IMG/VR virus record: IMGVR_UViG_3300037075_000004
Location: 1-64,000 of that record
Length of the DNA stretch: 64,000 nt
DNA from: a virus
Taxonomy: Duplodnaviria; Caudoviricetes
Strand: one strand, 5' to 3'
The translations under genes and the position numbers were made by a program. Each line of letters begins with the position of its first letter. Within the stretch, counting starts at the first letter, position 1. Below, piece after piece: positions 32,993-51,459 of the stretch. The notes beneath the pieces were generated by a model, which saw only the letters and a list, made by a program, of their open reading frames with translations, was not told the origin of the DNA and ran no database searches.

Positions 32993-33976
32993 TTATCTAC
33001 TTATTAGCTTTCCTTCTCTTTTATTGCGTTTTCTTATACTTTGGACGGCATCCCAATTTTGTCTTATCCATACCTGTGCTACCGATAGATTATGAGAAAA
33101 ATTAAGATGGTTTAGGCATTCTTCCTTTAGCGGGTTGTCAAGCATAGTATGGACAATCCAAAGTTTGTTCCACCAATGCCAATCTTCCCTTATCGACCGA
33201 ACTTTAGATATATTGTCAATATTTATTCTCTGGAAAACATGGCCAACCTTGATATTGGGATACATCATACATTTCCCCCCGTAAACTCTCGCCTTGAGAC
33301 TCAGCATTGCCTCCAGGTGCCCCCACATCCTGAATCCCCGGAACTGCTCTCCCGCTACCGTGTCAAATCCGTGCATTCTCTCATAAAATTCCCTTGTGGT
33401 GAAGTAGAATGCACCATAGACAGCATCAATCTCATAAGGTTCATCTGATTTCTTATTAGCCCACCGACAGCCTATAATTTCTCTATAATTAGGGTCTTTT
33501 CTTAGTTCTGAATTCTTTGGCAGGTCGTCAACTGTCATCGTCCATGTGATAGTTGCCCCGTATCTATGATATAATCCCTCTTGTGCGATGTCATAATTGC
33601 CCGGTTGGAGCCCTACGGAGCAAGCACACCCCATTTCATTCGATTTAAGGGCATTTTTAAGCGATTTAAGCCACTTTCCCCTCTCGGGGTATATATCAGC
33701 CCCACTTATGACGATAATGTCTCCTGACGCATCTTTCACGCATCGGTCAATGCCATATCCCACACCCCATCTTTTATCGGAATTTAGGATAATTGTGTTA
33801 TGCCAAGGGATTTGTTCGTCTATGATGTACTTTGGCGAGCCGTCATCATTCATGCTTCCGTCATTCCATATCACGATCTGCAAATCGGAGTGTTTCTGTC
33901 CGTAGGTAAGATTTTCTATGACATTCCAAAGACTTTTGTCATCTTCGTTGAGGCAAGGGATACAGACGGAAATCAT
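32993..33976 (-). CDS. GT2-family (GT-A) glycosyltransferase
   Basis: MISVCIPCLNE...IVIWNDGS...GVG...ASGDIIVISGAD; late WGHLE...LS.KA...GG.C......VGH.F. Confidence 0.85.
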   Translation of the reverse strand: MISVCIPCLNEDDKSLWNVIENLTYGQKHSDLQIVIWNDGSMNDDGSPKYIIDEQIPWHNTIILNSDKRWGVGYGIDRCVKDASGDIIVISGADIYPERGKWLKSLKNALKSNEMGCACSVGLQPGNYDIAQEGLYHRYGATITWTMTVDDLPKNSELRKDPNYREIIGCRWANKKSDEPYEIDAVYGAFYFTTREFYERMHGFDTVAGEQFRGFRMWGHLEAMLSLKARVYGGKCMMYPNIKVGHVFQRINIDNISKVRSIREDWHWWNKLWIVHTMLDNPLKEECLNHLNFSHNLSVAQVWIRQNWDAVQSIRKRNKREGKLISR

Positions 33977-34221: not shown

Positions 34222-34449
34222 TTAGCGGGATTTGCCGACCTTTTTCCCTTTTTTCTCTAACTGATGATACCTATGCCATGTACTACTTGCATCGCTATCA
34301 TAAAAGTACCCCCAACTACTCTGGGTAGCGAATTTGGTACCACAATTCCGACATTCAATCCACGATTCGTGGGTGCAATCTCCATGACCATAATCATTTC
34401 TATAGTTGAGATATATCTCCCCTCCGCATAATACACAAGTCTCTTTCAT
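34222..34449 (-). CDS. Small Zn-ribbon protein
   Basis: CVLCGG...CRNCG; 4-nt overlap with the upstream gene. Confidence 0.55.
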   Translation of the reverse strand: MKETCVLCGGEIYLNYRNDYGHGDCTHESWIECRNCGTKFATQSSWGYFYDSDASSTWHRYHQLEKKGKKVGKSR

Positions 34450-35249
34450 GTTTTCCTATTTAAGATTGCAACAATATTTTTCCGTTGAATACACCAATAC
34501 AACTTATCATCAAATTTACTATTCCATGTCGTTCTTTCAAGAAGAAACGGAACCGATTTCCGATCAAACAAAACTAAATCTCCTATTTTTAGGTCTTTAA
34601 AATCAATAAGTTCTGGAAATCTATAGCGGGCATTAGGTTTGCCAAGATACCGCACAACACCTCTATCTTGATAGATTTTGTCTTCGCTTATCACATCGAG
34701 ATCGGATAGCTTGGGTTTGGCAACTTGTGTGCAGAGGATATAGCCATTTAGAGTGAAGATATCTTCCCTTCTATCTTCCACATATTTATCGGAATATGTA
34801 ATAGGGTCTAATTTATAGTAATTTCGTGTTACGCCAATTAATCGCTTTGAAACGTAGATATCCTGATAATTTATCAATTTGTATTCTTCGCCTTCACAAA
34901 CAAGAGTAAGAGAATTTAGAGCGTCGATTGGATTGGTAAAGATTATATCTCCTTCCTGTAACTCTTGCGTGGTCTCCCAATCCATGCTTTTAGGGTCTTC
35001 GGGATTGAAATAAAGGCTCTTGGGGGTTTTATAGACTATGAGTGAAGTCTCCGCAAGATCGGCAACGTGCGAGCTTGTGTCCTTGCCATCCTCAGAAGCG
35101 TAGGTATTTTCATTATTAAATCCCACGACTATCCCTGCCTTTGTTTTCGCCCCCTCGTTGCTATAGTATGCCCGGCAGAGAACATGATTACTCAGCACCT
35201 CGCCATTGTCGAGTTCACTTCTCGATATCTCCTTCTTTGGGTTCTCCAT
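34446..35249 (-). CDS. Tandem-domain GroES-like (co-chaperonin-like) protein
   Basis: Two units: VLSNHVLCR...TKAGIVVG...LQEGDIIF and LNGYILCT...RGVVRYLG...LKIGDLVLF, each resembling the Cpn10 pattern. Confidence 0.55.
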   Translation of the reverse strand: MENPKKEISRSELDNGEVLSNHVLCRAYYSNEGAKTKAGIVVGFNNENTYASEDGKDTSSHVADLAETSLIVYKTPKSLYFNPEDPKSMDWETTQELQEGDIIFTNPIDALNSLTLVCEGEEYKLINYQDIYVSKRLIGVTRNYYKLDPITYSDKYVEDRREDIFTLNGYILCTQVAKPKLSDLDVISEDKIYQDRGVVRYLGKPNARYRFPELIDFKDLKIGDLVLFDRKSVPFLLERTTWNSKFDDKLYWCIQRKNIVAILNRKT

Positions 35250-37810: not shown

Positions 37811-38791
37811 TTAAATTGAATCTTTAGGCGGTTTTATGAATCCCACTGGGTCTTCTTTTGTGTTCTTGAGCACTCTCGTACTGAGGATGCCCGATACCTC
37901 TTCAAATGCCTCATCATGCGAATATCCCAACACGAAAACCGACAAGAGATATTCTTTCAAGTGATCTATTGTAAACCCCTCCGTCTTATCCACAAGATCA
38001 TTTACATTTATAGAACTCAGGTCGGCTCTTTGTAGCTTATGTTCTATATAGTATCTCCGTGTCTCGGCATTGGGTTTGCCAACCTCATATCGCCTGTCGA
38101 ATCTGCTCGGTCTGTTGGTTATCCTCTCCACGAGCTTTTCAGGGTAATTGGTGGTGGCTATGGTCACTATCCCATCACAACTTCCCACGCCATCAAGGAA
38201 GTTGAGTAACAATGTCTCAGACCATGAACCGTCCTTCCCCACAAAAGAATCTATATCCTCAAGTACTACTATAATTCTCTTGTCGGGTTCGATATCTTTG
38301 ATGTGTGGCAATATCTTCATTGTCCAGTTTATCTGATCCTCGTTCTGCGGAATAAATACTACCCCATTATAGTTAGATATAAGTTCTTTGGCGAGCAACA
38401 TAATCACAGACGACTTTCCACATCCGGCAATACCATAGAGCAAGATACCTCTCTTGTAGACGCTCTTATATTTTGCATACTTATCCCGATTCTTCCAAAA
38501 AGACCGTACATCTGTTAGCACCCGATCAAGGATCGGCGTAGGCAACACAAGTAACTCATCTATGTCAATATTTTTGCTTATAGGTATGCCCATGCTCATA
38601 TCCGAATCCCATTCAGTATTGTACACGCCCGGAGGTAGTATGTGTGTTGTCGCCCCTATGGGTGCAAGTTTATTACCTTTATATAGCCATTGTACATATC
38701 CTGACTTTATTGCTGCAATATTGCTCCTATTCATTTCTGCTTCTTTCTTGACCGCCTCTTCTTTGGCTATTCTTTCTGGTTTTGATTCCAT
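37811..38791 (-). CDS. AAA+ ATPase
   Basis: YKRGILLYGIAGCGKS (Walker A), VLEDID (Walker B), ATTNYPEKL..RITNRPSRFDRR (sensor 1 and Arg finger). Confidence 0.9.
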   Translation of the reverse strand: MESKPERIAKEEAVKKEAEMNRSNIAAIKSGYVQWLYKGNKLAPIGATTHILPPGVYNTEWDSDMSMGIPISKNIDIDELLVLPTPILDRVLTDVRSFWKNRDKYAKYKSVYKRGILLYGIAGCGKSSVIMLLAKELISNYNGVVFIPQNEDQINWTMKILPHIKDIEPDKRIIVVLEDIDSFVGKDGSWSETLLLNFLDGVGSCDGIVTIATTNYPEKLVERITNRPSRFDRRYEVGKPNAETRRYYIEHKLQRADLSSINVNDLVDKTEGFTIDHLKEYLLSVFVLGYSHDEAFEEVSGILSTRVLKNTKEDPVGFIKPPKDSI

Positions 38792-38792
38792 A

Positions 38793-39482
38793 TTATTTTA
38801 TATAAGTTCTCATCACTTCTATGTGCTTAGAATAATCTCTTGTAGATTTCCATATGGTCTCTCCTTTGGGCGGGATGTACTGTACATACTGTCCTGCGTT
38901 ATGTTTTAAGACTACCATTGGCACGCCCTGGTCACTTGCCGTCTTGCTCAGATACACATCAGCCATGTTCTTGGAATGGAAATCACTAAGTGTGATATCC
39001 AATCTGTCAGTATGGAAACAGCAACATCCGCTTCCTATAAGGTTCACAGGGACGTCCTCGCTGACAGTATTAAGACATCGGTATGCCCCCGCCCATCTGC
39101 GGAAGTCCGTCACGGGAGGAAGATAGGTGCGACCATGTAGACTCACCAACCCGTTATACCTGTCGACCCCGCTAATGAGATAATCTATTGTACCTGGTAA
39201 GCATATCAAGTCATCATCCCATCCTATATAATAACCATCCTCGACTTTTCCTACCATGGCGAACTTCTGAGCATCGCCCTGCTTATTGTCCGTTGACCAC
39301 CAAAAAATATTAGAGTATTTATCTAAGAACTTTTGGGCGGTTACTTCACCATAGTTTAATGACACAAATATTTGATCTGCCTGCCCCACTAGAGAATCGA
39401 GTACTCTCTCCAAACTTTCGCTTCTTGACGATATGGTTGCTATGCCAACGGTTCTCATCTTTTTAGGTAATAATCGTACCAA
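38793..39482 (-). CDS. GT-A-fold glycosyltransferase
   Basis: VGIATISSR..SL..VLDSL..QAD...GDAQKF...YYIGWDDDLI...IGSGC. Confidence 0.75.
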   Translation of the reverse strand: MVRLLPKKMRTVGIATISSRSESLERVLDSLVGQADQIFVSLNYGEVTAQKFLDKYSNIFWWSTDNKQGDAQKFAMVGKVEDGYYIGWDDDLICLPGTIDYLISGVDRYNGLVSLHGRTYLPPVTDFRRWAGAYRCLNTVSEDVPVNLIGSGCCCFHTDRLDITLSDFHSKNMADVYLSKTASDQGVPMVVLKHNAGQYVQYIPPKGETIWKSTRDYSKHIEVMRTYIK

Positions 39483-40429
39483 TATTGGATCATCTCTTCC
39501 ATTGTCTGCTCAAACGTAAATTCGGGAGACCACCCCAAGATAACTCTTGCGCGCGAAGAGTCTCCCCTGAGATAAGGTAGCTCTTCAGGACGCAGAAAGA
39601 TGGGGTTTTGAACTACATAATCTTTGTAATCTAACCCTAAGCAACTAAATACATAGTCACACATTTCTCGCACGGAATGCGTCTCCCCTGTTGCTATCAC
39701 AAAATCATCTGCCCTAACATGATTGAGTATAGCGTACATGGCCCGCACATAGTCCTTAGAGTTGCCGATGTCCCGATACGAATCCATATTACCTAGTTCG
39801 AGTTTAGTCTTTAGCCCAAGTTTTATTTCTACGGCAGTCTTAACAATTTTCTGGCATACAAAATTAGACCCCCTGCGGAACCCGGAATGATTGAACAATA
39901 TCCCCACACAGGCAAACAATCCGTACGCACGCCTGTAATGTCTCACGAGATTTATGGATGCTACTTTAGAGATACCGTAGGGGCTAGTCGGAACGAATGG
40001 GGTAGTCTCTCTCTGATATTTGTCGTCATCTACTGACAATCCGAAGCACTCACTCGACCCGGCAAAGTAGAGGTGGGCATCGGGGGCATACTTACGATAC
40101 GCCTCAAGTACATTCAATGTCCCCACAAAATTGGTCTGCATGACAAAGGTAGGCATGGAGAAGGAGATTTTTACGTGACTCATGGCTGCGAGGTGGAATA
40201 TGTAATCAGGTTTAACTAATTCCATTACCTCGTTCACTGATATTGGGTCTGTCACATCTCCATAGTGGGTATGAATATTGTCTTTGACGGCATCGAGCCG
40301 ATAGGCTTGGTTCTCTGCCACCGAATGCCTCCTGACAATCCCATGTACCTCGTGCCCTAACGAGAGCATATAGTCAGTCAGGTTAGCCCCATCCATCCCA
40401 GATATGCCCGTTATCAGTATTTTAGCCAT
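39455..40429 (-). CDS. gmd: GDP-mannose 4,6-dehydratase (Gmd family)
   Basis: Start moved to ATG 40429 (MAKILITGISGMDG); HYGDVTD, HLAAMSHV.ISF, AGSSECFG, SPYGISK, GILFNH, LGNMDSYRD.G, LRPEE...LRGD. Confidence 0.95.
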   Translation of the reverse strand: MAKILITGISGMDGANLTDYMLSLGHEVHGIVRRHSVAENQAYRLDAVKDNIHTHYGDVTDPISVNEVMELVKPDYIFHLAAMSHVKISFSMPTFVMQTNFVGTLNVLEAYRKYAPDAHLYFAGSSECFGLSVDDDKYQRETTPFVPTSPYGISKVASINLVRHYRRAYGLFACVGILFNHSGFRRGSNFVCQKIVKTAVEIKLGLKTKLELGNMDSYRDIGNSKDYVRAMYAILNHVRADDFVIATGETHSVREMCDYVFSCLGLDYKDYVVQNPIFLRPEELPYLRGDSSRARVILGWSPEFTFEQTMEEMIQYWYDYYLKR

Positions 40430-40661
40430 TAACCACCTCCCTTGTTGATGGGTCTGCACCAAAATGTCTGCGGTAGACAGTACTCCCATCTCTTTCGTAA
40501 ATCCATTCGTCACTTTGGACGAGATTCCTAGTCAGGGATTCCACCCATTTATCTCTCATATGCTTCATACCTTTTATAAATCCGTCTATCTCTGGCCCGG
40601 TTTCCTGCATCGTGCCGGTATAGACTTCGTTTTCAATTTCTTGATCTGTCGGTGGTCTCAT
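40422..40661 (-). CDS. Hypothetical protein
   Basis: 79 aa overlapping both neighbours in the operon. Confidence 0.5.
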   Translation of the reverse strand: MRPPTDQEIENEVYTGTMQETGPEIDGFIKGMKHMRDKWVESLTRNLVQSDEWIYERDGSTVYRRHFGADPSTREVVNG

Positions 40662-41269
40662 AATATATGTTTAAAAACTGTCATCTTAGTTAAGTCTGGC
40701 CAATCTGTTATTACCCATTTCTTTGGCGGGGTTTCGATGGCCTCCGGTAATTTCCACAGACCCTTCTCTGCGGTCTCCGGGGGTAGATAATAGTGGTATC
40801 CGATAGAGTCGATGTTTTGCTCTCTCCACGGCACACCCGGCAATCTCCCATCATATGACATCTTCTTTAATTTTAGCCACGCATCCTCATCATCAAATAA
40901 GATCATCCCTCCCCGCCCGAGACTGAGATGCTTCTGAAACTGGAAGCTAACAGACATGAATGTACCGGAAATATAACTATTCTTTCTCCATAATACGGCA
41001 GCATCCGCCACCTTGTCCGTCAGAAAATAATAATCCTGCCAATCGTTATCCTCCCATATTAATCTGATATTCATCTTATAGGCAAGGAAGGGGATAGATA
41101 GGTATGTTCTATAGGGGACATATATCTCTTTTGCCCCAGTATATCTTAGTGATAGTTCTATCCCGTGCGTACATGAGTCCACCGCCACGGCATATGGCGC
41201 CCCAAAGAACTCAGCAATCTTCTCCTCAAAGAGTCTTACACTATTGTAATCTACCTTTCTTAGTTCCAT
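40658..41269 (-). CDS. Short DegT/DnrJ/EryC1/StrS-type PLP sugar aminotransferase
   Basis: FEEKIAEFFGAPYAVAVDSCTHGI, DAA, SFQFQKHLSLGRGG (PLP lysine); only 203 aa. Confidence 0.8.
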   Translation of the reverse strand: MELRKVDYNSVRLFEEKIAEFFGAPYAVAVDSCTHGIELSLRYTGAKEIYVPYRTYLSIPFLAYKMNIRLIWEDNDWQDYYFLTDKVADAAVLWRKNSYISGTFMSVSFQFQKHLSLGRGGMILFDDEDAWLKLKKMSYDGRLPGVPWREQNIDSIGYHYYLPPETAEKGLWKLPEAIETPPKKWVITDWPDLTKMTVFKHIL

Positions 41270-42027
41270 TATAGTCTGTGTACTTTAGTTATTGTATCTG
41301 AGAATATTATCGCAGCATTGGCGAGGTTGCTCACCCTGCACAAGAACTGACATCCCTTACCGAGTAGTAGCATCTCGACAAACGCTTCCTCCCAAAGTAG
41401 GGGATTGGTAAAGTTCTTGACATGCATAGAATCGTCCTTAAACACCTCCTTCTTCTCCCTGAACCTGCAATCGTAGTATACCACATTACCGAAAACCTTT
41501 CCTATTCTGTCTATCGACTCCATGTTGTCCGATGCCACAAATATTCTGTCGATATCTTCAGTTTGTAGTATCTCGCCTATCTTGGCAATGTAATCATCGG
41601 TACCGAACACCCCAAACTCAGGATGGTATAGGTTCATATCGGCAGTCCTCACATGCACAGAAAGGGTCTTTGATGTCATGTTCTCGCTATAGAACTTATC
41701 AACCTTATCGGTTATGTAACTTTTAACCTTTACCAGCCTCCTCACATCCTGCATCTTGGGGAATAGTGGAGATTTCTCTATCGGCCCCAAGCCTATGGTG
41801 TCTACCTTGCTATACGTTCCCGGGTTGTAGCAATGGAAGTCTACGAAACTATCATCCTTCCACTGATCGAATATCCAATCGAAAGGATTACCCTTTATGT
41901 TATCGTTCTGTGAAGTGTAATAAACGCCCTCCACCGCCTCGTTTTGATTGACAGCGTGGGGTAACATGAGCATAAACTGGCAATAGATACCCTTAAAGCC
42001 TCTCGGTAGTATCAAATTAATCTTCAT
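41269..42027 (-). CDS. NodZ/O-fucosyltransferase-like GT-B protein
   Basis: LSVHVRTAD, IFVASDN, EMLLLGKGCQFL.RVSN. Confidence 0.7.
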   Translation of the reverse strand: MKINLILPRGFKGIYCQFMLMLPHAVNQNEAVEGVYYTSQNDNIKGNPFDWIFDQWKDDSFVDFHCYNPGTYSKVDTIGLGPIEKSPLFPKMQDVRRLVKVKSYITDKVDKFYSENMTSKTLSVHVRTADMNLYHPEFGVFGTDDYIAKIGEILQTEDIDRIFVASDNMESIDRIGKVFGNVVYYDCRFREKKEVFKDDSMHVKNFTNPLLWEEAFVEMLLLGKGCQFLCRVSNLANAAIIFSDTITKVHRL

Positions 42028-42541
42028 ATCCTAGTTCTTTAGCGAGTTCCATTATTTTAGTCCCGTCAATCTTCTTGACCAACTTGGCGGGGTTGCCTTT
42101 GTAAATCCCCCATTCCTCAGTATCTCCTATGAGCAGACTGCCCGCCGATAACAGCACGCCTTTTCTCAGTCTTGTCCCTGGTAGTACGATAGCGTTTGTC
42201 CCGATATTGGAGAACATCTCCATGATGACGGGTTTGATGATCTGCTTCCCCTTGAGGTGTGCCGGGATCATGGCACCAAACAGGCCACTATCATCGAACC
42301 TGTCGGAACCACATATTATTCGTGCTCCCGCCATGATATTATTGAACCCGAGAGCCTGAAAGAATCCCTCATCCCCGCCAATGCAAGTAACATAAGGCGA
42401 TATATGAACATAATTACCGATATTGAATGCCGTTGTACAGTAGAATCCCCTGTCTATTGAACAGTGATTGCCCACTCTTGCAAGTTCGGGATGCTTAAAG
42501 TACACATCCACATCTATCCGTACATCGCTACCGCTTACCAT
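42017..42541 (-). CDS. Hexapeptide-repeat (left-handed beta-helix) acetyltransferase
   Basis: IGNYVHI, IGTNAIVLPGT, WGIYKGNPAKLVK. Confidence 0.85.
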   Translation of the reverse strand: MVSGSDVRIDVDVYFKHPELARVGNHCSIDRGFYCTTAFNIGNYVHISPYVTCIGGDEGFFQALGFNNIMAGARIICGSDRFDDSGLFGAMIPAHLKGKQIIKPVIMEMFSNIGTNAIVLPGTRLRKGVLLSAGSLLIGDTEEWGIYKGNPAKLVKKIDGTKIMELAKELGYED

Positions 42542-42543
42542 CG

Positions 42544-43344
42544 TTATTTATTTTCTGCTAGTATCTCTGTTATCTTGGCCTTTAGCGTATCCCCGTAGGG
42601 GGTGAACTTGGATGCCCGGGCAAAGTTATCCTCTATAGCATCTATTCTCTTGGCATAATCATCTTCTGTAAGTCCGTTACATACCGCTATCATCTCATCT
42701 ACATTACGGCATTCATATATGCCGTCCATATTGAAGAAATCTCCAATATTGGGAGTGCCGTAATGTATCGGTATCGTCTTCGACATGAAACAATCAACAA
42801 TCTTCTCCGTGAAACAGTTTCTTATGCAGACATTCTCTATGGCGATATGAAACTGAGAATCGAATAATGGTTCCTTACTACTCCCGAGGATCGGGTTATT
42901 GCTATAGTCGGCACCCTGATATCTCTTGTGGGAACTAAGATAAAATGCCTTAGGGATGGATATCTCTCCCCGTCTTGCCCATAGTTCATGCCTCTTGGCA
43001 TATCCCGGGAATCCCCTGTCGGCTTTCCCTCCTACGACTGTCGACACGCCAAAGGTATGCGTTCTCTGTTTGTTAGGATCAATCCATGTACTGAGCCCCA
43101 TATAATATCTTGCCTTGGGGTTATTATCAAGTATCTCCTGATGGTAGGTCAGCACATAGTCATAAAACTCAGTATGCCCCATCACCTCGCCATTTAACTT
43201 CATGTTGGGTTCCTGTAATATGATTATGCGGATAGTCCCTTCTGGCGGGAAGTCCCGCTTAAAATGATCCACCAGTATCTCGATCTGTTTGTCGGTATCG
43301 AGATCAATCATTAGATTCCAGTTTGCCCTTACCGTTATGCTCAT
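42544..43344 (-). CDS. GT10 fucosyltransferase-like protein
   Basis: FHIAIENVCIRNCFTEKIVDCFMSKTIPIHYG.PNI..FFN. Confidence 0.75.
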   Translation of the reverse strand: MSITVRANWNLMIDLDTDKQIEILVDHFKRDFPPEGTIRIIILQEPNMKLNGEVMGHTEFYDYVLTYHQEILDNNPKARYYMGLSTWIDPNKQRTHTFGVSTVVGGKADRGFPGYAKRHELWARRGEISIPKAFYLSSHKRYQGADYSNNPILGSSKEPLFDSQFHIAIENVCIRNCFTEKIVDCFMSKTIPIHYGTPNIGDFFNMDGIYECRNVDEMIAVCNGLTEDDYAKRIDAIEDNFARASKFTPYGDTLKAKITEILAENK

Positions 43345-43757
43345 TCAATAAATGTTTTATCGTTTTCCTGCCCGAGATAGGGGCCGGTTTTAAATTCGAG
43401 GATTTTGCTCGGATCGCTAAGCACCTTATAGGTGTGACCGCCATAGAGAGTAAATGATGTATCCCCCTCATAAAGTATTGGTTCGGCTATGATAGTATCA
43501 TCCAGATCATAAAGAATACACTTAACTCGTCCCTTAATGACGTGCCATGCTTCCTGTGCGATCTTATCGGCATAACTGACTTCATGTTCTATGTGCTTAT
43601 GGGGTCGGAATGTCTTACCGGCATTATGACTCATGGCGGCACATTGCAGAAACCCGTTAACGGGTAATATGTCGATCCTCCCATCTTGGAAATCGTATAG
43701 TCTCCATACCACATGAAGGAGTAATCCTTCTTCCACTTTAGAATATATCTTCTCCAT
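43341..43757 (-). CDS. Cupin-fold sugar isomerase/epimerase-like protein
   Basis: FLQ.AAM.H..GKTFRPHKH...QEAW.VIKG.V...YD...GGHTY...EFKTGPY.G.ENDK.FI. Confidence 0.7.
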   Translation of the reverse strand: MEKIYSKVEEGLLLHVVWRLYDFQDGRIDILPVNGFLQCAAMSHNAGKTFRPHKHIEHEVSYADKIAQEAWHVIKGRVKCILYDLDDTIIAEPILYEGDTSFTLYGGHTYKVLSDPSKILEFKTGPYLGQENDKTFIE

Positions 43758-44341
43758 TATTTTAAGTGTGCTACTAATATGTCATTGGGTACATCGTGAT
43801 CTTCGTAAGAAAGTGTGTAGTTGGGATTTATCTTCAGCAGGGCGTCAATTATATCCTGCGAATAGAACCCGTAAAAGTTCTTACATGGGTACAGTTCGCA
43901 TCTGCAAACGGGTTTGCCATCTAAAGGCTTGCTCCAACATCTCATATCATCTATCATTATCGTATGGGTATTAAGAGAATGTTTTTCTATCTGCATCAGT
44001 TCTATCATTAGCGGGGTGCAATATTTCCCGATAGCCGTATCACCCTTTGAGTAATGCCCATCAAGCCAGAATGTTATAGGTTCGCGAATATCCCTGATTA
44101 CATATTTGAGCATCTTGCTTGAATCACCCTGATAAATCTTAACCTTCTTATTATCCCTGAATCGCTCCCGCGCCAAAGCACAATACTTCTCCGATAGTTC
44201 GATAGACATAACATTCTCAAATCCTGCATCCAGTGCAAGTTGCACCGAATCCCCGATATAGGTACCTGTTTCTACGAAGTACTTATTTGGGTACTTGGCG
44301 AAAACATTCTCTTTTAATTTTTTATAGGTTACCTCCATCAT
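43757..44341 (-). CDS. SAM-dependent methyltransferase-like protein
   Basis: Start moved to ATG 44341 (ATGA overlap); FVETGTYIGD, SIELS, GDS, FWLDGH, IMIDD. Confidence 0.7.
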   Translation of the reverse strand: MMEVTYKKLKENVFAKYPNKYFVETGTYIGDSVQLALDAGFENVMSIELSEKYCALARERFRDNKKVKIYQGDSSKMLKYVIRDIREPITFWLDGHYSKGDTAIGKYCTPLMIELMQIEKHSLNTHTIMIDDMRCWSKPLDGKPVCRCELYPCKNFYGFYSQDIIDALLKINPNYTLSYEDHDVPNDILVAHLK

Positions 44342-44946
44342 TTCTTTAATTCGTGGCATTCCCATACCCAATCGTAGCAATAGACTTCATCATGTGTCTC
44401 AGACAGCCATTTGCGGATAATATTACGCTTAATCTCCGCGTTTTTAACCCAAGGATGAAACTGCATCTGAAGTCTCTTTATTTTAGTTATTTTATCATTT
44501 ATTAAAAGTCTAAATAATATATCATATTCCATCCCTTCTATGTTGATGTTGGCTAAATCAATTTTATCATAATCATCTATTTCATCATTTATATCAAGCA
44601 AAATCACTCCCTCTGTTTCGGTGGATTGGTATGCGTATCTTCGGGATGAATCTTCGTTAGAAGCGAAGGGCGCCCCTTCTTCGATGTGGTCACTAAGACC
44701 ATAATTATGACAATATAATTTAATATTACATAACGCTCTATTCTTCAAAATATCGTAATTTTTAGTCATGGGTTCATAAACATCCACCCAACACCCATAT
44801 TTCTGATTAATAGCAATCGCCCAATCACCATGATATCCCCCAACCTCCCAAACATAAGAATCATTATTTAGCGGATGATCGAGCAATAATGTATTATCAC
44901 CATCATCGGCACGCCATCTTTCAAGTTCCTTGCTATTATCTATCAT
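44338..44946 (-). CDS. FkbM-family methyltransferase
   Basis: VWEVGGYHG, VYEP, NINIEGMEYDIL, LQMQFH; visibly more AT-rich than neighbours. Confidence 0.8.
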   Translation of the reverse strand: MIDNSKELERWRADDGDNTLLLDHPLNNDSYVWEVGGYHGDWAIAINQKYGCWVDVYEPMTKNYDILKNRALCNIKLYCHNYGLSDHIEEGAPFASNEDSSRRYAYQSTETEGVILLDINDEIDDYDKIDLANINIEGMEYDILFRLLINDKITKIKRLQMQFHPWVKNAEIKRNIIRKWLSETHDEVYCYDWVWECHELKK

Positions 44947-45554
44947 ATCTTGCGTAAAAAGTCGTAATCAACATAAAATTTGAACACATCACTTATCCCT
45001 GCCCTCTGAAATGCCAAATTTGGGCTAAAACAGAAGGAATTAGACACTTTCTGTAGCCCAGCAAGGATTATGTCGTCTTGAGGCTCAAGTGGCTCTAATG
45101 CCTTTAAAACAGCGTTAAACACGGTATTTCTCAAGGCGAAGGCATGGGTAGCGTAAGTATTGGTTATTTTTATCACATGATCTGATATCTTTGGCGGGTT
45201 TTCGCCATTGTGGTTGCCTCCGATCCATAGCATATCCCAGTTTTCGGGGACTTCCTTGCTCCACTCGGCAAACTTATTGTTAAAATCCTCCGCAAACTCC
45301 ACGTCATCCTCCAATATCAGCACGCTATCGTAATTTCTCTCTACCGCCAGCTTAACTATCCCGATCTTGCTAAGACAGTTACCGACACTCCCCCTCGGAA
45401 CCTTATAATTGAATGGTTCTATGAGATTGCCGTCCACAGCGGGGAATCTCTCGACATCGAGTCCCCACTTGGCGAACTCTTTCTGTGACAGTTCCCACTT
45501 ATCGAGGCACCCGTCAAGGTTCACACAGAAAATATGACTAAAAAACTCATTCAT
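44943..45554 (-). CDS. GT25-family glycosyltransferase
   Basis: Start moved to ATG 45554 (MNEFFSHIFCVNLD); ERFPAVDG, VLILEDDV, P.NWDMLWIG, THAFA. Confidence 0.85.
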   Translation of the reverse strand: MNEFFSHIFCVNLDGCLDKWELSQKEFAKWGLDVERFPAVDGNLIEPFNYKVPRGSVGNCLSKIGIVKLAVERNYDSVLILEDDVEFAEDFNNKFAEWSKEVPENWDMLWIGGNHNGENPPKISDHVIKITNTYATHAFALRNTVFNAVLKALEPLEPQDDIILAGLQKVSNSFCFSPNLAFQRAGISDVFKFYVDYDFLRKI

Positions 45555-46197
45555 CCTTCGTAAGTAATATACCATCAAGAATATACCATTGCGGATGTGA
45601 CAATTTCCACCCGGCAAACACCTCCTTCACCATTTCCTCCCAGTTTTCATGGCACCCGGGGTTCTCTATGAGAAAAACATACTCATTGGATGCTTTTTTC
45701 ATGTTAGCGAGTGCATTGATAGCATTCTCGGTGCTCAGGTGCATAACCACGGCCTGCGAGAACACAAAATCGAAAGTCCTGTCGGGTATTTCCTTCGTTA
45801 TATCCATCACTTTCACGTTCTGATAGATATTATCTGGCAAGCTCATGTACCACTTCCCTATGTCTATCTGACTCTGCGATATGTCGATGCCATACAATTC
45901 GGCCTTGGGTACTATTAATGGCAGGTTAGCAAGCTGATAGCACATCCCACAACCCACCTCAAGGATACTTTGGGGTTGTAACAGATATAATAGAGCATAA
46001 AGTTCCCTAGAATTATTGTGGATATTACAACCCGCCCTAAAGGAAAGATCATCTCCCTTAATCAGATCATCGGGATTGACAAAAAAATCAAATGACTTAT
46101 CCCGTAATACTTCTACTACTTGCCGGAGATAACTATCTCCCGTATATGTAACCCAATTCCAATCGTCTTTTTCTTTCATACCTTTATCCAGTGCCAC
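45547..46197 (-). CDS. Class I SAM-dependent methyltransferase
   Basis: ILEVGCG, YGIDIS, FDFVFSQAVVMH, VFLIE. Confidence 0.85.
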   Translation of the reverse strand: MALDKGMKEKDDWNWVTYTGDSYLRQVVEVLRDKSFDFFVNPDDLIKGDDLSFRAGCNIHNNSRELYALLYLLQPQSILEVGCGMCYQLANLPLIVPKAELYGIDISQSQIDIGKWYMSLPDNIYQNVKVMDITKEIPDRTFDFVFSQAVVMHLSTENAINALANMKKASNEYVFLIENPGCHENWEEMVKEVFAGWKLSHPQWYILDGILLTKDE

Positions 46198-46970
46198 GGC
46201 ACTATGTCTTTTGCTCTATTATTATCATCTCCAAACCATCTCTCGGGTGCAATCGTCCTTTTATCGACGTTCTGTCCGATCCAGGCCGCCCACCATGAGA
46301 ATGAACTATTTGCAATTATATGATGAGTACACCTCGACTGTAAGAAAAGGCAAATATAATCAGTATCTTCGACAAATACAAACTTTTCCCCAATAAAATT
46401 TTCTCTGCACCAGGTCATGTCGTCACTTACCACGATATACCGTTCAATACCATAGGGTCGCAGGTACTCCATTGCCCGGTTATAGTAATCCATGTCACAT
46501 GGCGGGTGTATATGGGCCAGTTGGACATAATTGCCCCTGCGTACATGAATGGAACAGGTTGTACCCTTAAGTAAATCATCGTATTTTGAGAGTCTGGCGC
46601 TGATATCGTCCGATGGTTCCAACGATTTTAGTACAAAATCCCGGTAGTGTGCAAAATAACTCTCACTCTGGAAATATCCCACATATCTCGTATCGTCCTC
46701 GGCAATTATCCTCCTATATTCAAAAGGTACTCTTACTATTCTCTTTGGCGGGACTGCCCAATCCTGATTTTTTCTCAAGTCCAAATTCTTAAATATAGTG
46801 AGATATTCTCTTGCGTGCGTAGTCCATGCCGTCTGCCTACTCAACATCTCGATAAAATTATCAATGTCGGCATAATAAACATCCGTGCCTATTTCCTGCG
46901 CCATGACCTCTATGGTTGCAATCTGGAACATTTGATTCCCAATCCCGCCCATGAGTTCGATACTAAGCAT
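46176..46970 (-). CDS. GT11 alpha-1,2-fucosyltransferase-like protein
   Basis: GGIGNQMFQ, GYFQSESYF, SIHVRRGNY, SDDMTWC, HIIANSSFSWWAAW, P.RWF. Confidence 0.9.
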   Translation of the reverse strand: MLSIELMGGIGNQMFQIATIEVMAQEIGTDVYYADIDNFIEMLSRQTAWTTHAREYLTIFKNLDLRKNQDWAVPPKRIVRVPFEYRRIIAEDDTRYVGYFQSESYFAHYRDFVLKSLEPSDDISARLSKYDDLLKGTTCSIHVRRGNYVQLAHIHPPCDMDYYNRAMEYLRPYGIERYIVVSDDMTWCRENFIGEKFVFVEDTDYICLFLQSRCTHHIIANSSFSWWAAWIGQNVDKRTIAPERWFGDDNNRAKDIVPWHWIKV

Positions 46971-47838
46971 ACCTACTGATGAGTTGAAATTTATATTCTA
47001 TGACACTTGTCTTGCTCTCCACGGGAAGTGCCTCAAATTCTTTCGCTATCCTCACCATATCTAGGAGATGAGGATTGGTGTTAACCGTTGACGGGTGACA
47101 TAGATGAAATACTTCAACAACAGGATCGTCACACATCCCCACTTTCGTATACAACGATATTTTGTGCCAGAAGAACCTATCCTCTGGCGAGTATCCGACA
47201 AATAACTCCGGGTCATATCCCCCCACCGCAAAGAACAGTCGTCTTGATAATGTGATCGACCCTCCGGGGGCTTCGCCCTTAACGGTATATATTCCCTTGC
47301 TGTTTATATTTAGGTTATCGACATCCACCTTGCCCGATATTAAGTCCGGTGTGAGGCGGTGATCGCAATACAGCACCCGCCTTGCATTGAACGACTGTAC
47401 TGCCGATGTCTCTTTTTTTTCTATATTATCTAATACTCCGTGGTAGAAATTCTTTTGAACAAGGCAATCGAGGTCATGGCATATTATCCACTTGCTCTTG
47501 GGAGTTACAAAAACCCCGATATTGAACGCCAGACACTTGTTGAAAGCCCCCTCATCCTGTATCCACACATAGTTAATCCCGTGCATGAGGCAGGTATTAT
47601 AATGCCTCGCAACATTATCGTGCTCTACAACAGTCAGTTGGATGAGTAAACCCTTATCATCTGCACTCTTTAGTGAACAAAGTAGTGGTGAGAGAAAGTC
47701 CATCCTACCCCGTACCGGTACCACCACATTAATGTCGTAATACAGATCATCGTTGTATAAGATATGAATGCTGGCATTCTTTAGCACACTATCGTAGTCT
47801 ACTGCGTTATCCTTGATCTTTTGGAGTAGTTTATTCAT
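46963..47838 (-). CDS. GT2/GT7-like glycosyltransferase
   Basis: VVVPVRGR, FNKCLAFNIG, HDLD, GGYDPELFVGYSPED, HLCH. Confidence 0.85.
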   Translation of the reverse strand: MNKLLQKIKDNAVDYDSVLKNASIHILYNDDLYYDINVVVPVRGRMDFLSPLLCSLKSADDKGLLIQLTVVEHDNVARHYNTCLMHGINYVWIQDEGAFNKCLAFNIGVFVTPKSKWIICHDLDCLVQKNFYHGVLDNIEKKETSAVQSFNARRVLYCDHRLTPDLISGKVDVDNLNINSKGIYTVKGEAPGGSITLSRRLFFAVGGYDPELFVGYSPEDRFFWHKISLYTKVGMCDDPVVEVFHLCHPSTVNTNPHLLDMVRIAKEFEALPVESKTSVIEYKFQLISRYA

Positions 47839-48356
47839 TTCTTCAGTTCTTTAACTACATAATGGAGTATCATGGAATGAATGCTCTCCACGGTTTCCAT
47901 ATCGTCAAGCGGAACATGGACATTAATATCGCATAGGTTCTTCAGTGTTCCCCCGTCAAAACCCGTAAGAGCCACAACCCTCAGTCCAAACTTTCTACAT
48001 TTACTTGCCAGACTAAGAACATTGGCACTCTTGCCTGATCCGCTGAGAACCACCGCCAATGTCTTTTCCGTCACCCCCATCCTATCCGCTATATTTGTCA
48101 GTGCGCTACCGTAACTATCATCATTGGAATATGCAGTCAGTAGTCCCGTGTTATCAGTAAGACATATAGCTTTTATATGGCATCCTTTCATAAGGTCTTG
48201 TGCAAAATGAGATGCCGTAGCTGATGACCCTCCATTCCCCGCAACAATTACATGGTCACTATCCCTTATTGCCTTGATAAACCCGTAAACCGATTCTGCA
48301 TCTATTTGTTTTAACACAGCACCAAAATATCCGCTATAGTCCTGAAAATTCATCAT
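47835..48356 (-). CDS. gmhA: Sedoheptulose-7-phosphate isomerase (SIS fold)
   Basis: AGNGGSSATASHFAQD, LTAYSND, LSGSGKSANV, ALTGFDGG.L, VESIH...H. Start is probably ATG 48356 or 48353. Confidence 0.9.
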   Translation of the reverse strand: MMNFQDYSGYFGAVLKQIDAESVYGFIKAIRDSDHVIVAGNGGSSATASHFAQDLMKGCHIKAICLTDNTGLLTAYSNDDSYGSALTNIADRMGVTEKTLAVVLSGSGKSANVLSLASKCRKFGLRVVALTGFDGGTLKNLCDINVHVPLDDMETVESIHSMILHYVVKELKK

Positions 48357-49014
48357 TTGCAAGTTTTAAGTCTTCTAATGTCCCAATGTCTCTTAGATAA
48401 TCACTTATGAGATATACTCCCATATTGCCTATGTACATGGGTAATAGGTCATATGCTATATCTTTGCCGGGGATGCTGTCAAGCACACCCCGCTCCATGA
48501 CATACACTCCCGCATTGACATAATCAGACCTGGGTTCCTTGGGTTTCTCCTGAAAATCCACCACGGTTATCCCGTTATGTACGACAATACCCCTACCCAT
48601 CACATCATCCATCTGTTTTGCCGACATTGTTATTGGGTAGGTATGTCCTCTGTGCCACCATAAAAGATCGGTCAGATCAAGGTTGGTTAATACATCCGCA
48701 TAGGCTACAAAAAAATCCTCCCCGTTTTTAATAAACGACCTATTCTCCCGTAGTGTTCCTGCCGAACCAAGCAGAGATTCCTCATACACGATCTTGAACT
48801 GACATTTTCTCCAATGGGTAGCGAGATATCTTTCTACCTGGTCGGCATGATGATGGACATTCACGAGGACTTCCGTTACGCCATGTTTTTCAAATAGTTT
48901 ACCCCACCAATAGAGAAGGGGTCTGCCTTGCACCGTGGCAAGACATTTGGGTATTGTATCAGTCAGGGGTGCCAATCTCGTCCCGAGACCTGCCGCCAAG
49001 AGAAATGCTTTCAT
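48334..49014 (-). CDS. hddC: Sugar-1-phosphate nucleotidyltransferase (HddC / mannose-1-P guanylyltransferase family)
   Basis: AFLLAAGLGTRLAPLTDTIPKCL, LGSAG, YAD, F.EKP, VNAGVY, DIGT; next to gmhA and the GHMP kinase. Confidence 0.75.
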   Translation of the reverse strand: MKAFLLAAGLGTRLAPLTDTIPKCLATVQGRPLLYWWGKLFEKHGVTEVLVNVHHHADQVERYLATHWRKCQFKIVYEESLLGSAGTLRENRSFIKNGEDFFVAYADVLTNLDLTDLLWWHRGHTYPITMSAKQMDDVMGRGIVVHNGITVVDFQEKPKEPRSDYVNAGVYVMERGVLDSIPGKDIAYDLLPMYIGNMGVYLISDYLRDIGTLEDLKLANDEFSGL

Positions 49015-49973
49015 TGGATATTAAATATTATTCTTGCTCCAAATGGATCAATAGAGAATGGTAGTTCTCGGTAATTTTTCATTGCCTCCTTAAATCGGTA
49101 TTGCTCTTGTGGGGGCACATATGACAATAGGAATCCACCACCACCAGCACCACATATCTTACATCCCGTAGCACCGCCCGTGTATGCAATATCAATTATC
49201 CGATCTATCTCACCATTACTTATTCCCGTTGCGAGGGTTTGTTTAAGCACCCAACTCGAATGAATAATTTCACCAACCTTATCATAATCCATGGCGAGTA
49301 TCGCATCATGGGCGTCTCGGGCATAGTCGGCCAATTTCCCAAGAATACTTATATTTTTGTTTGTATCCCTATCTTGCTCCTCTAATATTTTGTTCCCGTC
49401 CCTCGTGATACCAGTAAAGTGCAAAAACAAATTATCCGCTATATCATAGTGTTTAGCGGGAATAGGCAACGACAACACGCCAGAACTATTAAAATAAATA
49501 TTCATAAAGCCGCCTATCGCACAAGTATATTGATCCTGCCTTCCTATTGGTTTATCCAAGGTATCTATCTCTATCATACAGGCATCTTCGGCAAGTTCCT
49601 TTGGTGTCACATAAATCCCTTGATAGGCGAACATGGCCTGCAAGAGACCTATCGTGATGGCTGATGACGAACCGAGTCCGGTGCCCGCGGATGGGATATC
49701 AGCAAGTGTCGAAATCTCGACTCCCTTTTTTATCTCGGCATACTCCATACACGCCCTGATAATCTCATGCTTTATTTCGCTAACATCACTAACAATCTCG
49801 TGTTGGGTATAGTTAAGAACAACCAGATCATCGTATCGTTCCCTGATGATGACATAGACATATTTGTTGATGGCGAAGGATACCACATATCCGTCATACT
49901 CTCGTGAATAGGCATCAAAGTCCGAGCCTCCTCCGGCCAGACTTATTCTTAAAGGAACTTTTATTACTATCAA
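49011..49973 (-). CDS. hddA: D-glycero-D-manno-heptose-7-phosphate kinase (GHMP family)
   Basis: PLRISLAGGGSD, IPSAGTGLGSSSA, PIGRQDQY..A.GG, KICGAGGGGF. Confidence 0.9.
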   Translation of the reverse strand: MIVIKVPLRISLAGGGSDFDAYSREYDGYVVSFAINKYVYVIIRERYDDLVVLNYTQHEIVSDVSEIKHEIIRACMEYAEIKKGVEISTLADIPSAGTGLGSSSAITIGLLQAMFAYQGIYVTPKELAEDACMIEIDTLDKPIGRQDQYTCAIGGFMNIYFNSSGVLSLPIPAKHYDIADNLFLHFTGITRDGNKILEEQDRDTNKNISILGKLADYARDAHDAILAMDYDKVGEIIHSSWVLKQTLATGISNGEIDRIIDIAYTGGATGCKICGAGGGGFLLSYVPPQEQYRFKEAMKNYRELPFSIDPFGARIIFNIQ

Positions 49974-50881
49974 TATCTTGGATTTTTACGCCATTTATAG
50001 GCAGATGAAATAATGTCTGATAGGCTTTTGCGGGGTTGCCACCCAATAAGTTGTCTGGCATAATATGCGTTAGACACAAGCCATTCCATATCTCCATCCC
50101 TCCGCGGTTCGTGTGTCCTCGGTACTGCCAACCCCGTCTGATGCTCCACCTCCCTTATAATATCTAATACCGAATAACCACGCCCCATGCCAAGTTCTAT
50201 GGTATCATTACTTTTTTTATCAAATGGCAATACCGATATAATGGCATCGGTTATATCTTCCACATGAATATAATCTCTTATTGCTGTACCGTCCCCGGTG
50301 TCATAATCCATCCCGTAGATAATTAATTTATCTTTCTTCCCCATCGCCACGTCCAATACGGTCGGGATGAGGTGTGTCTCGTGCTCCCGAGATTCGCCAT
50401 GCTTCTCCGTGGCACCCGCAACGCAGTAGAATCGGAAGATATAGTATTGGATGCCGTATGCCCGGGCAAAGTCCCTAATCATATCTTCACATGCTCTTTT
50501 TGAGTTACCGTAGGGCGTATTGCTATCTATTGCCGCTGTTGATGCGAAAATGATTTTTTTAACCCCGCCATCTACCATCGCAGTCAAGAGGTGAAATGTA
50601 CTTACAACATTATTATCATAATACTCTTGCGGGTCTTTAATAGACTCCGGCACATTGGCTGAGGCCGCAAGATGAATCACGGTGTCTATGTCATAAGATT
50701 CAAAGAGGAACCGTGCGTCATCAACAACACACTCCTCGAATATTGCCCGCTCGTCTACCGCTTCCGCATGGCCGTCTCTCAAATCATCTATTACAACAAC
50801 TTGATGTCCGGCATCGCAGAGTTTTTCAACTGCCACGCTGCCTATATATCCCGCTCCTCCAGTAACCGCTATCATACGCAA
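49970..50881 (-). CDS. galE: UDP-glucose 4-epimerase-like extended SDR
   Basis: VTGGAGYIGS, HLAA...V.ES...P..YY.NN, YGNSK, HLIP, DGTAIRDYIHVED, RRDGD. Confidence 0.85.
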   Translation of the reverse strand: MRMIAVTGGAGYIGSVAVEKLCDAGHQVVVIDDLRDGHAEAVDERAIFEECVVDDARFLFESYDIDTVIHLAASANVPESIKDPQEYYDNNVVSTFHLLTAMVDGGVKKIIFASTAAIDSNTPYGNSKRACEDMIRDFARAYGIQYYIFRFYCVAGATEKHGESREHETHLIPTVLDVAMGKKDKLIIYGMDYDTGDGTAIRDYIHVEDITDAIISVLPFDKKSNDTIELGMGRGYSVLDIIREVEHQTGLAVPRTHEPRRDGDMEWLVSNAYYARQLIGWQPRKSLSDIISSAYKWRKNPRY

Positions 50882-51459
50882 AATCTATTATAATTTGTTA
50901 CTATTGTTGAAACATCCGATCTTCTACAGGTATCACTCTGAAAATCTGCTTGCGTACACACCATCGGATAAGTGCAGAAACAATTAAATTTAGGTTGTAC
51001 CTCGTTCATCAGGAAAACGTCCCATTTCCCAATCCGGTATTCATCATCGGCAGTAAGACAATATTCTAATGCACCGTTTTCTCTGACATTCCAGATCATT
51101 GCGTGAGTTGTTAGTGCTTTAGTAATCTTAAATAGATGAGGGGAATACTGCTCTTGCGGGGCTTGGGGACTGCACCCGAGATACAGGATATCCCAATCCG
51201 AGGGTAGTTCGGTCATCGCCTCCGTTGCCACCGAAATATCCGTAAGAAACTTTATATCATCTTCGAAGATAGCTGATACCTCTTGGTTGGCAAATATTTT
51301 TACGAGACAACTCAGATGTGAATCTCGGCATCCCATCCAACCGATTTTATTGATCTTGGCGGGATAGAGATATGCGTTGAGGTTTTGATTTTCTAATTCC
51401 GTCATCGCATGTTTCCGCCTTTCGGGTCTGTCGGTTCTGTTAATGAGATAAATCTGCAT
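50872..51459 (-). CDS. GT25-family glycosyltransferase, first gene of the operon
   Basis: YLINRTDRPERR, GC..SH, IFEDDI, LP.DWDILYLG, THA. Confidence 0.85.
   Translation of the reverse strand: MQIYLINRTDRPERRKHAMTELENQNLNAYLYPAKINKIGWMGCRDSHLSCLVKIFANQEVSAIFEDDIKFLTDISVATEAMTELPSDWDILYLGCSPQAPQEQYSPHLFKITKALTTHAMIWNVRENGALEYCLTADDEYRIGKWDVFLMNEVQPKFNCFCTYPMVCTQADFQSDTCRRSDVSTIVTNYNRFCV

Follow-up and report, generated by a model that had tools for sequence, protein, structure and literature searches.

In the GDP-N-acetyl-D-perosamine pathway of Caulobacter crescentus and E. coli O157, an activated amino sugar is made by the dehydratase Gmd, the aminotransferase Per and the left-handed β-helix (LbH) acetyltransferase PerB. 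The same three enzyme types are encoded, beside GmhA-, HddA- and HddC-type genes, at positions 39455–50881 (minus strand) of the phage DNA described here, which comprises the first 64 kb (64,000 nucleotides, referred to as the window) of the 84,145-bp viral record IMGVR_UViG_3300037075_000004 (Duplodnaviria; Caudoviricetes; estimated completeness about 95%). The phage aminotransferase, a DegT-family protein, keeps the Schiff-base lysine, but it is about 200 amino acids (aa) long compared to about 370 aa for the enzyme of the perosamine pathway. Furthermore, the phage cassette has a conserved metal-type cupin, to which the perosamine pathway gives no role. Because of the added cupin and the short aminotransferase, the phage product may differ from perosamine in stereochemistry.

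The GDP-heptose and GDP-6-deoxyheptose pathways (DmhA/DmhB, DdahA/B/C) resemble the phage locus in that genes of the GmhA, HddA and HddC types are neighbours and a Gmd-family dehydratase and a cupin share the operon. The phage differs from the GDP-6-deoxyheptose pathways in having no GmhB and no C4 reductase, in a Gmd that falls outside the Campylobacter heptose-dehydratase lineage, and in its cupin, which is a WbuC-like protein of 138 aa and not an RmlC-type epimerase of 175–200 aa. The dTDP-Fuc3NAc and dTDP-Qui3NAc pathways (RmlB, the FdtA/QdtA cupin of about 135 aa, FdtB/QdtB and FdtC/QdtC) follow the same four-part logic as the phage cassette. They use dTDP, however, where the phage would use GDP. 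Searches of Pfam and the PDB do not connect the sequence of the phage cupin with the FdtA family, and its Z scores with ketoisomerases do not exceed those with epimerases; the likeness is one of design only.

Among phages, Synechococcus phage S-SCSM1 encodes Gmd, Fcl, O-FucT, an α-1,2-FucT, NodZ and several glycosyltransferases (GTs) (PMC9602691), and it shares with the present phage these gene families, the phage setting and the lack of exporter genes. Caulobacter phage Cr30 and phage SynMITS9220M01 carry annotated heptose genes (PMC7378029), and they likewise have gene families in common with the present phage and no genes for export. In contrast to all three, a cupin, a short DegT protein and an LbH acetyltransferase here replace Fcl, and both modules lie in one 19-gene operon beside structural genes. 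Mycobacteriophages have only a small number of GTs and, unlike the present phage, are not known to encode modules for the synthesis of nucleotide sugars. As in the present phage, their GTs are soluble and are not known to be accompanied by genes of lipid-linked assembly. These GTs glycosylate capsid and tail proteins (PMC11256854), and a virion protein is the presumed acceptor here too.

Results

A phage operon with two probable nucleotide-sugar modules

The genes belong to a 19-gene run on the minus strand (38793–51459, Table 1), in which each gene overlaps or directly meets the next (gaps of −71 to +2 nt). Next to this operon, on the same strand, are genes for packaging and the head; the portal protein, the large terminase and virion proteins are encoded by minus-strand genes of the window. 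An earlier note on this DNA had listed a set of sugar enzymes, and their co-occurrence is borne out: Gmd, LbH, cupin, DegT and GmhA-, HddA- and HddC-type proteins are all encoded by the one overlapping operon, as are three GTs of the GDP-sugar type, namely a GT11 enzyme (PF01531), a GT10-like and a FUT8/NodZ/O-FucT-like protein (the latter two assigned with Atlas). None of the 19 products contains a hydrophobic stretch of transmembrane strength, and family searches (Pfam, NCBIfam) find no flippase, polymerase or initiating (phosphoglycosyl)transferase among the 19 genes. Near-identical DNA is present in 24 sediment or freshwater metagenome runs, and no RNA dataset appears in the list of sequencing runs with such DNA. 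The host is probably a Bacteroidota species of sediments.

On balance, this operon is probably the core of a phage glycan-building set that consists of two self-standing nucleotide-sugar modules and GalE. Most likely, two activated sugars are made via separate routes: GDP-heptose on the one hand, and an acetylated amino-deoxy sugar derived from GDP-mannose on the other. Judging from gene neighbourhoods, the heptose and Gmd gene sets are separate mobile modules that were joined by happenstance in the phage operon, because each of them recurs without the other in other phages and bacteria. The observations that bear on this reading are family assignments, conserved catalytic residues, synteny counts and the absence of Fcl, GmhB and a reductase.

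The two gene sets occur independently

Loci with Gmd relatives (110 from viral or metagenome records and 80 from bacterial or archaeal genomes) were searched with all proteins of the island, and counts were made on those viral or metagenome loci that span at least 8 kb and whose Gmd shares at least 45% identity with that of the phage (63 after removal of redundancy). The cupin is present in 49 of the 63 loci, the short DegT protein in 41 and the LbH protein in 10. The order upstream of Gmd is fixed (cupin ... DegT-Gmd), with the short DegT gene directly upstream of Gmd. A GmhA or HddA homologue, by comparison, is found in just two of these loci (L015 and L057) and in none of 32 Bacteroidota loci, and heptose genes are absent from 47 of the 49 phage loci that carry the cupin. 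In 21 whole viral records, a hidden Markov model search detects HddA twice; one of these two records had been collected via HddA itself.

The nearest cellular Gmds (55–66% identity) belong almost without exception to metagenome-assembled genomes (MAGs) of Bacteroidota, where the cupin lies directly upstream and LbH directly downstream, and where no heptose genes are found within 10 kb of the cassette. One such MAG (L119, 8073–12681) carries Wzx, cupin, Gmd, LbH and a full-length DegT protein of 363 aa, whereas another (L122, 8370–14069) carries a DegT protein of 368 aa, cupin and Gmd, followed 2 kb on by a GT11 gene whose product is 36% identical to the phage GT11. GT11 homologues (30–36% identity) are neighbours of the cassette in Muribaculaceae as well as in phage loci. 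The Wzx of L119 scores best as an O-glycosylation flippase.

Conversely, heptose genes are found without Gmd. Phage Cr30 has the order GalE-GT2-HddA-small open reading frame (ORF)-GmhA and no Gmd, and the human-gut phage contig MT835644 has GmhA, a short-chain dehydrogenase/reductase (SDR), HddC (42% identical) and HddA (46% identical), again without Gmd. The plasmid heptose clusters of Lawsonia and Rhizobium contain no Gmd-type gene, and the SDRs beside the heptose genes of L004, L015 and L114 carry no dehydratase signature. A GalE-like or other SDR gene adjoins heptose genes in the phage operon, in Cr30, in the gut phage contig and on Rhizobium plasmids (L115, 5984–7003; L114, 8746–9885; L200, 6124–7065), which may exceed chance.

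Gmd groups with GDP-mannose dehydratases

The likely start of Gmd is the MAKILITG at 40429 and not the GTG at 40513. Its best matches in the PDB are the GDP-mannose dehydratases (GMDs) 1n7g (Arabidopsis, 274.8 bits), 1rpn (Pseudomonas, 242.5 bits) and 1db3 (E. coli, 237.1 bits). The only solved heptose dehydratase, the GDP-heptose 4,6-dehydratase 7us5 of C. jejuni, scores 133.0 bits, and a canonical bacterial GMD (L189) is equally distant from it (137 bits); hence, 7us5 is an outgroup to the whole GMD family, with the phage Gmd inside. By these comparisons, the phage Gmd lies within the GDP-mannose dehydratase family. The placement of Gmd relative to heptose-specific dehydratases, an issue raised in the earlier note, is in part addressed: as scored by pairwise match, the phage enzyme is nearer to the GDP-mannose dehydratases (275 vs 133 bits). 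It keeps SSE127 and Y151x3K155, i.e. the GMD signature [ST]SE..Yx3K (PMC8987622).

The cupin, short DegT and LbH proteins

The DegT-type aminotransferase listed in the earlier note belongs to that family, although at 203 aa it is a member of a conserved short branch of it. The length of this short family is consistently about 196–215 aa, and a library of 1.84 billion proteins contains 303 of its clusters (50% identity, E ≤ 1e-30), mostly of about 200 aa. Compared to full-length enzymes (about 370 aa), the C-terminal domain is missing from the short protein, as are about 45 residues from its interior. The AlphaFold2 (AF2) model (pLDDT 92.7) keeps a seven-stranded core. GDP-perosamine synthase is the top match of this model in Foldseek (3dr4/3dr7/3bn1, E 8e-11, TMq 0.70), and the C. 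crescentus enzyme is also first in a PDB profile search. Asp89, Ser108 and Lys113 are invariant in an alignment of 40 family members. The short DegT protein is predicted to be an aminotransferase and not a ColD-type 3-dehydratase because the Schiff-base lysine is kept; ColD-type 3-dehydratases have a histidine in its place (PMC8987622). For the full-length DegT protein of the Bacteroidota cassette, perosamine synthase is joint first with 169 bits and the C3 aminotransferase QdtB reaches 143 bits, a ranking that leans towards C4 amination without deciding the matter.

Three other explanations of the short DegT protein were rejected. A ColD/E1-type 3-dehydratase role conflicts with the lysine invariant in 40 members, and a pseudogene fragment conflicts with a family conserved at about 200 aa in 303 clusters. 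The third, that the short protein arose by recent deletion from the full-length enzyme of Bacteroidota, conflicts with an identity of only 24% between the two. In cultured phages, short DegT proteins are annotated as ‘AHBA synthase’ or ‘dTDP-4-amino-4,6-dideoxygalactose transaminase’.

The cupin epimerase named in the earlier note is present as a small cupin that is WbuC-like by sequence and not of the RmlC type. It scores 30.6 bits with the WbuC model TIGR04366 (cut-off 42), which its Muribaculaceae orthologue passes with 43.1 bits. In 48 sequences of the family, H53, H55, E69 and H108, which include an H-x-H pair, are invariant, which is the pattern of metal-binding cupins. Pfam gives no match for the 48 cupins, Foldseek finds no match to the AF2 model (pLDDT 93) at E ≤ 0.001, and a profile search of PDB sequences returns only spurious matches to designed propellers. 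As the cupin is strictly linked to Gmd across phages and bacteria, it would act on the Gmd product. It may be either a 3,4-ketoisomerase, as in the Fdt/Qdt design, or a C3/C5 epimerase; epimerisation would give an L-fucose-like 4-amino sugar that suits the fucosyltransferase-like GTs.

The LbH protein matches TIGR03570 (NeuD/PglB/VioB, 43.1 bits) and PF00132 (18.5 bits), in all cases below the cut-offs, and it is 69–72% identical to the products of LbH genes that adjoin the cassette in L006, L036 and L057.

The heptose module, GalE and enzymes that the phage does not encode

The 13 best PDB matches of the GmhA-like protein are all phosphoheptose isomerases (top match 1tk9, 76 bits). For the HddA-like kinase, NF049969 is the best family by a margin of 66 bits, although the score is below the cut-off of 600, and its PDB matches are heptose kinases (3k85, 130.9 bits; 4n3o, 128.6 bits; WcbL 4usk, 120.8 bits). 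A heptose kinase of the GHMP type implies the α-anomer and, hence, a GDP-linked route. The alignment of the nucleotidyltransferase with HddC of Y. pseudotuberculosis (6jq8, 225 aa, 66 bits) spans both proteins from end to end. GmhB, which the earlier note had given in brackets, is absent, as a search of the entire 84-kb genome with TIGR00213 gives no match at E ≤ 1; because GmhB is not encoded, a host phosphatase would be needed for removal of the 7-phosphate. Likewise, no phosphatase is seen beside the heptose genes of Cr30 or of the gut phage contig MT835644.

The protein taken earlier for an SDR reductase is a genuine GalE and not a GDP-sugar C4 reductase: it scores 290.5 bits with TIGR01179 (cut-off 262.3), and at least its 30 best PDB matches are all GalE (top match 2c20, 214 bits). 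Gmd and GalE are the only two extended SDRs in the 84-kb genome, from which it follows that neither a GDP-sugar C4 reductase nor Fcl is encoded. The absence of a GDP-fucose synthase noted earlier holds for the whole genome, in which the Fcl model NF047922 (cut-off 500) gives only cross-matches of about 40 bits on GalE and Gmd. A 6-deoxyheptose product is unlikely because, with no reductase encoded, the route would be without its last step.

Discussion

Proposed routes and acceptor

We propose the following model for sugar synthesis by the phage operon. The GmhA-, HddA- and HddC-type enzymes would make GDP-heptose, with a host phosphatase removing the 7-phosphate. The second module (Gmd, cupin, short DegT and LbH; 39455–43757) would start from host GDP-mannose, which Gmd would convert into GDP-4-keto-6-deoxy-D-mannose. 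The cupin would then act on this product by 3,4-ketoisomerisation or C3/C5 epimerisation, the PLP (pyridoxal phosphate) enzyme, i.e. the short DegT protein, would add an amino group, and LbH would acetylate it. The resulting donor may be a perosamine-type GDP-N-acetyl-amino-6-deoxyhexose or one of its isomers, which the GT10-, GT11- and FUT8/NodZ-like GTs would most likely transfer in place of fucose. GalE would supply UDP-galactose for the GT25 enzymes, and the methyltransferases would decorate the glycan.

The notion that the Gmd, aminotransferase and acetyltransferase set could supply a perosamine-like donor to fucosyltransferase-like GTs in a phage without GDP-fucose synthase, which the earlier note had put forward, has stood up. 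Regarding these GTs, the GT10-like protein matches PF00852 at the family motif with 17.8 bits (cut-off 23.9), and all 30 of its nearest Atlas clusters are GT10; the nearest Atlas clusters of the 252-aa GT are FUT8_N_cat, NodZ, O-FucT and GT11, mostly viral.

The most plausible acceptor is soluble, a virion protein, because all products of the operon are soluble and the packaging genes, read from the same strand, are its neighbours. A fibre protein of 627 aa encoded beyond the window (Table 1) has about 260 residues of proline-free, Thr/Ser-rich Gly-X-Y repeats (GSQGTT and similar). A GT-A-like gene comes next after the fibre gene, and the fibre is a candidate glycan acceptor. DNA was also considered as a substrate for glycan hypermodification and is unlikely to be the acceptor: a C5-cytosine DNA methyltransferase is present, but no Tet/JBP dioxygenase is found anywhere in the genome.

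Points that weigh against two separate routes

Several observations count against the reading of two separate routes. In L015, heptose genes lie directly beside the cassette. Most viral records are fragments, so that heptose genes may lie elsewhere in those genomes. The subclade formed by the phage Gmd and its 65–80% identical metagenome relatives is altered in four motifs that are conserved in all of the other cassette Gmds, at least 90 in number: GQDG is changed to GMDG, AAQSHV to AAMSHV, NHESPRRG to NH(S/T)G.RRG (NHSGFRRG in the phage), and RDWGH to RD(I/F)G(N/S/Y) (RDIGN in the phage). These changes could signal an altered substrate. Among the loci collected, this subclade is represented by one short contig (L034). 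Nor does family placement fix the specificity of Gmd, as heptose dehydratases accept GDP-mannose weakly; DdahA, for example, turns it over, albeit poorly (PMC7949155).

Two of the assignments are also affected. In structural comparison with VIA-align, enzymes that act on nucleotide-4-keto sugars rank first for the cupin: the FdtD ketoisomerase domain (Z 8.0), WbcA (7.9), StrM (7.4), RmlC (7.2), the 3,4-ketoisomerase HCAN_0198 (7.0) and the GDP-heptose 3-epimerase (6.5). All of these Z scores, however, fall inside the background range stated for the tool. The HddC assignment of the nucleotidyltransferase is putative with regard to both nucleotide and sugar, since ManC-type (93 bits) and archaeal GlmU-type (102 bits) N-domains score higher than the HddC family NF049965 (76.6 bits). 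Finally, the substrates, the order of the steps, the donors of the GTs and the acceptor are deduced from sequences and structural models.

Alternative explanations

The operon could instead serve ordinary GDP-L-fucose, with the phage Gmd enlarging the pool of GDP-4-keto-6-deoxymannose, the host Fcl completing fucose, and the GT-A and GT25 types transferring the amino sugar and heptose. We regard this as unlikely, although not without merit. The GT10, GT11 and FUT8/NodZ families are defined by the use of GDP-L-fucose, an Fcl-like SDR adjoins Gmd and GT11 in the related loci L014 and L097, and fucose synthesis is common among Bacteroidota, the phylum of the nearest cellular relatives. In cyanophage S-SCSM1, moreover, Gmd and Fcl occur together with these three GT types (PMC9602691). 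The phage itself, however, is without Fcl, and GT11 homologues accompany the cassette with no Fcl-like gene in the flank in L005, L085, L087, L121 and L122.

It is rather improbable that the island remodels the host surface (lipopolysaccharide (LPS), capsule or O-glycans) against superinfection, with its nucleotide sugars feeding lipid-linked assembly of the host. In cyanophages, the usual annotation of such islands is modification of LPS or the cell wall (PMC9602691), and the cellular cassette of L119 lies beside a Wzx flippase. This explanation is difficult to reconcile with a set of 19 genes from which a membrane protein, a flippase, a polymerase and an initiating phosphoglycosyltransferase are absent, with the proximity of same-strand genes for packaging and the head, and with a collagen-like fibre whose Thr/Ser-rich repeats would suit O-glycosylation.

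In the earlier note, the two gene sets were combined into one route to a 6-deoxy- or 4-amino-6-deoxy-heptose, a proposal that finds no support in the present analysis: there is no C4 reductase, Gmd groups with GDP-mannose dehydratases, and the modules occur independently. In its hybrid form, Gmd would act on GDP-heptose made by the phage, and the cupin, short DegT and LbH proteins would lead to GDP-4-acetamido-4,6-dideoxyheptose, which the fucosyltransferase-like GTs would transfer, whereas a 6-deoxyheptose would need a host reductase. Both modules indeed share one overlapping operon, and L015 is a second case of their adjacency. GDP-heptose, but not GDP-mannose, would be made by the phage itself, the altered motifs of the Gmd subclade lie around the cofactor and sugar site, and enzymes of the dehydratase superfamily can accept GDP-mannose as well as GDP-heptose (PMC7949155). 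Nevertheless, we consider the hybrid very unlikely. Nearly all phage loci with the cupin, and every Bacteroidota locus examined, have the cassette without heptose genes, the Gmd of L015 retains the canonical motifs although heptose genes lie beside it, the phage Gmd is far from the sole solved heptose dehydratase, the C4 reductase that a 6-deoxyheptose would require is absent, and the C. jejuni heptose pathways, as reviewed, use no aminotransferase (PMC10680097). Least probable of all is the specific conjecture that GDP-4-acetamido-4,6-dideoxyheptose, of a sugar class so far undescribed, is put on the proline-free collagen-like fibre by the fucosyltransferase-like enzymes.

Significance of the cassette

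If the reading of two separate routes is true, the locus is an ordinary phage glycan island, as annotated in cyanophages and Cr30, and the exotic heptose drops out. Two things would be new, namely the product that the Gmd/WbuC-cupin/DegT/LbH cassette makes and the activity of the DegT family of about 200 aa. The four-gene cassette is common to Bacteroidota and many aquatic phages and may replace fucose as the donor for GT10-, GT11- and GT23-type transferases. The short DegT proteins, if active, would be the smallest known sugar aminotransferases; together with the cassette, they are relevant to the assembly of glycans by phages in the absence of lipid carriers.

Genes of the operon and other features

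Table 1. Genes of the 19-gene operon, listed from its last gene to its first, and other features of the genome.
Feature	Position	Strand	Evidence and remarks
GT-A-like protein, 229 aa	38793–39482	−	DDD motif by eye; function inferred from motif alone; no Pfam/NCBIfam match; last operon gene, just beyond the 39455–50881 interval
Gmd, GDP-mannose 4,6-dehydratase family, short form, 324 aa	39455–40429	−	PF16363 329.7 bits; TIGR01472 294.5 bits
79-aa ORF between short DegT and Gmd	40422–40661	−	No family match; 0 homologues in 190 related loci
Predicted short DegT-family PLP sugar aminotransferase, 203 aa	40658–41269	−	PF01041 60.9 bits
FUT8/NodZ/O-FucT-like (GT23/GT65-type) GT, 252 aa	41269–42027	−	No Pfam match; Atlas 0.96, TM 0.74–0.82
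LbH (hexapeptide) acetyltransferase, 174 aa	42017–42541	−	TIGR03570; PF00132 (scores in text)
GT10-like (α-1,3-fucosyltransferase family) GT, 266 aa	42544–43344	−	PF00852 (score in text); Atlas 0.98, TM 0.94
WbuC-like cupin, 138 aa, putative isomerase/epimerase on GDP-4-keto-6-deoxy sugar	43341–43757	−	TIGR04366 (score in text)
Putative class I methyltransferase (weak), 207 aa	43757–44380	−	Sub-threshold Pfam methyltransferase matches, E 0.01–0.05
FkbM-family methyltransferase, 202 aa	44338–44946	−	TIGR01444 41.8 bits (cut-off 37.7); PF05050 25 bits
GT25-family GT, 224 aa	44943–45617	−	PF01755 33.7 bits (cut-off 24)
Class I S-adenosylmethionine (SAM) methyltransferase, 216 aa	45547–46197	−	PF13649 40.3 bits; PF08241 39.7 bits; TIGR03587 51.8 bits (below cut-off)
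GT11-family (α-1,2-fucosyltransferase family) GT, 264 aa	46176–46970	−	PF01531 83.8 bits
GT-A (GT2-like) candidate, 291 aa	46963–47838	−	Sub-threshold PF10111, PF00535, PF13733
GmhA-like sedoheptulose-7-phosphate isomerase (SIS), 175 aa	47835–48362	−	TIGR00441 89.7 bits (best family; cut-off 209)
HddC-sized sugar-1-phosphate nucleotidyltransferase, 226 aa	48334–49014	−	PF00483 100 bits
HddA-like GHMP kinase, 320 aa	49011–49973	−	NF049969 156.6 bits
GalE, UDP-glucose/galactose 4-epimerase, 303 aa	49970–50881	−	TIGR01179 (score in text)
Second GT25-family GT, 195 aa	50872–51459	−	PF01755 33.9 bits; first operon gene
GT2-family GT	32993–33976	−	PF00535 51.6 bits; weak PHROG match, GtrB-like O-antigen conversion
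267-aa protein	34446–35249	−	C-terminus with weak Cpn10/GroES match, 21.9 bits, barely over cut-off
AAA+ ATPase	37811–38791	−	PF00004; FtsH/proteasome-ATPase-like C-terminal part
C5-cytosine DNA methyltransferase	56825–57916	+	PF00145 210 bits
Collagen-like fibre protein, 627 aa	71254–73137	+	Genome coordinates, beyond the window

Three further minus-strand genes lie on the downstream side of the operon. The AAA+ ATPase gene is directly downstream of it on the same strand, and the GT2-family GT gene lies 5 kb downstream, on the terminase side; the gene of the 267-aa protein with the Cpn10/GroES-like C-terminus is located between these two.

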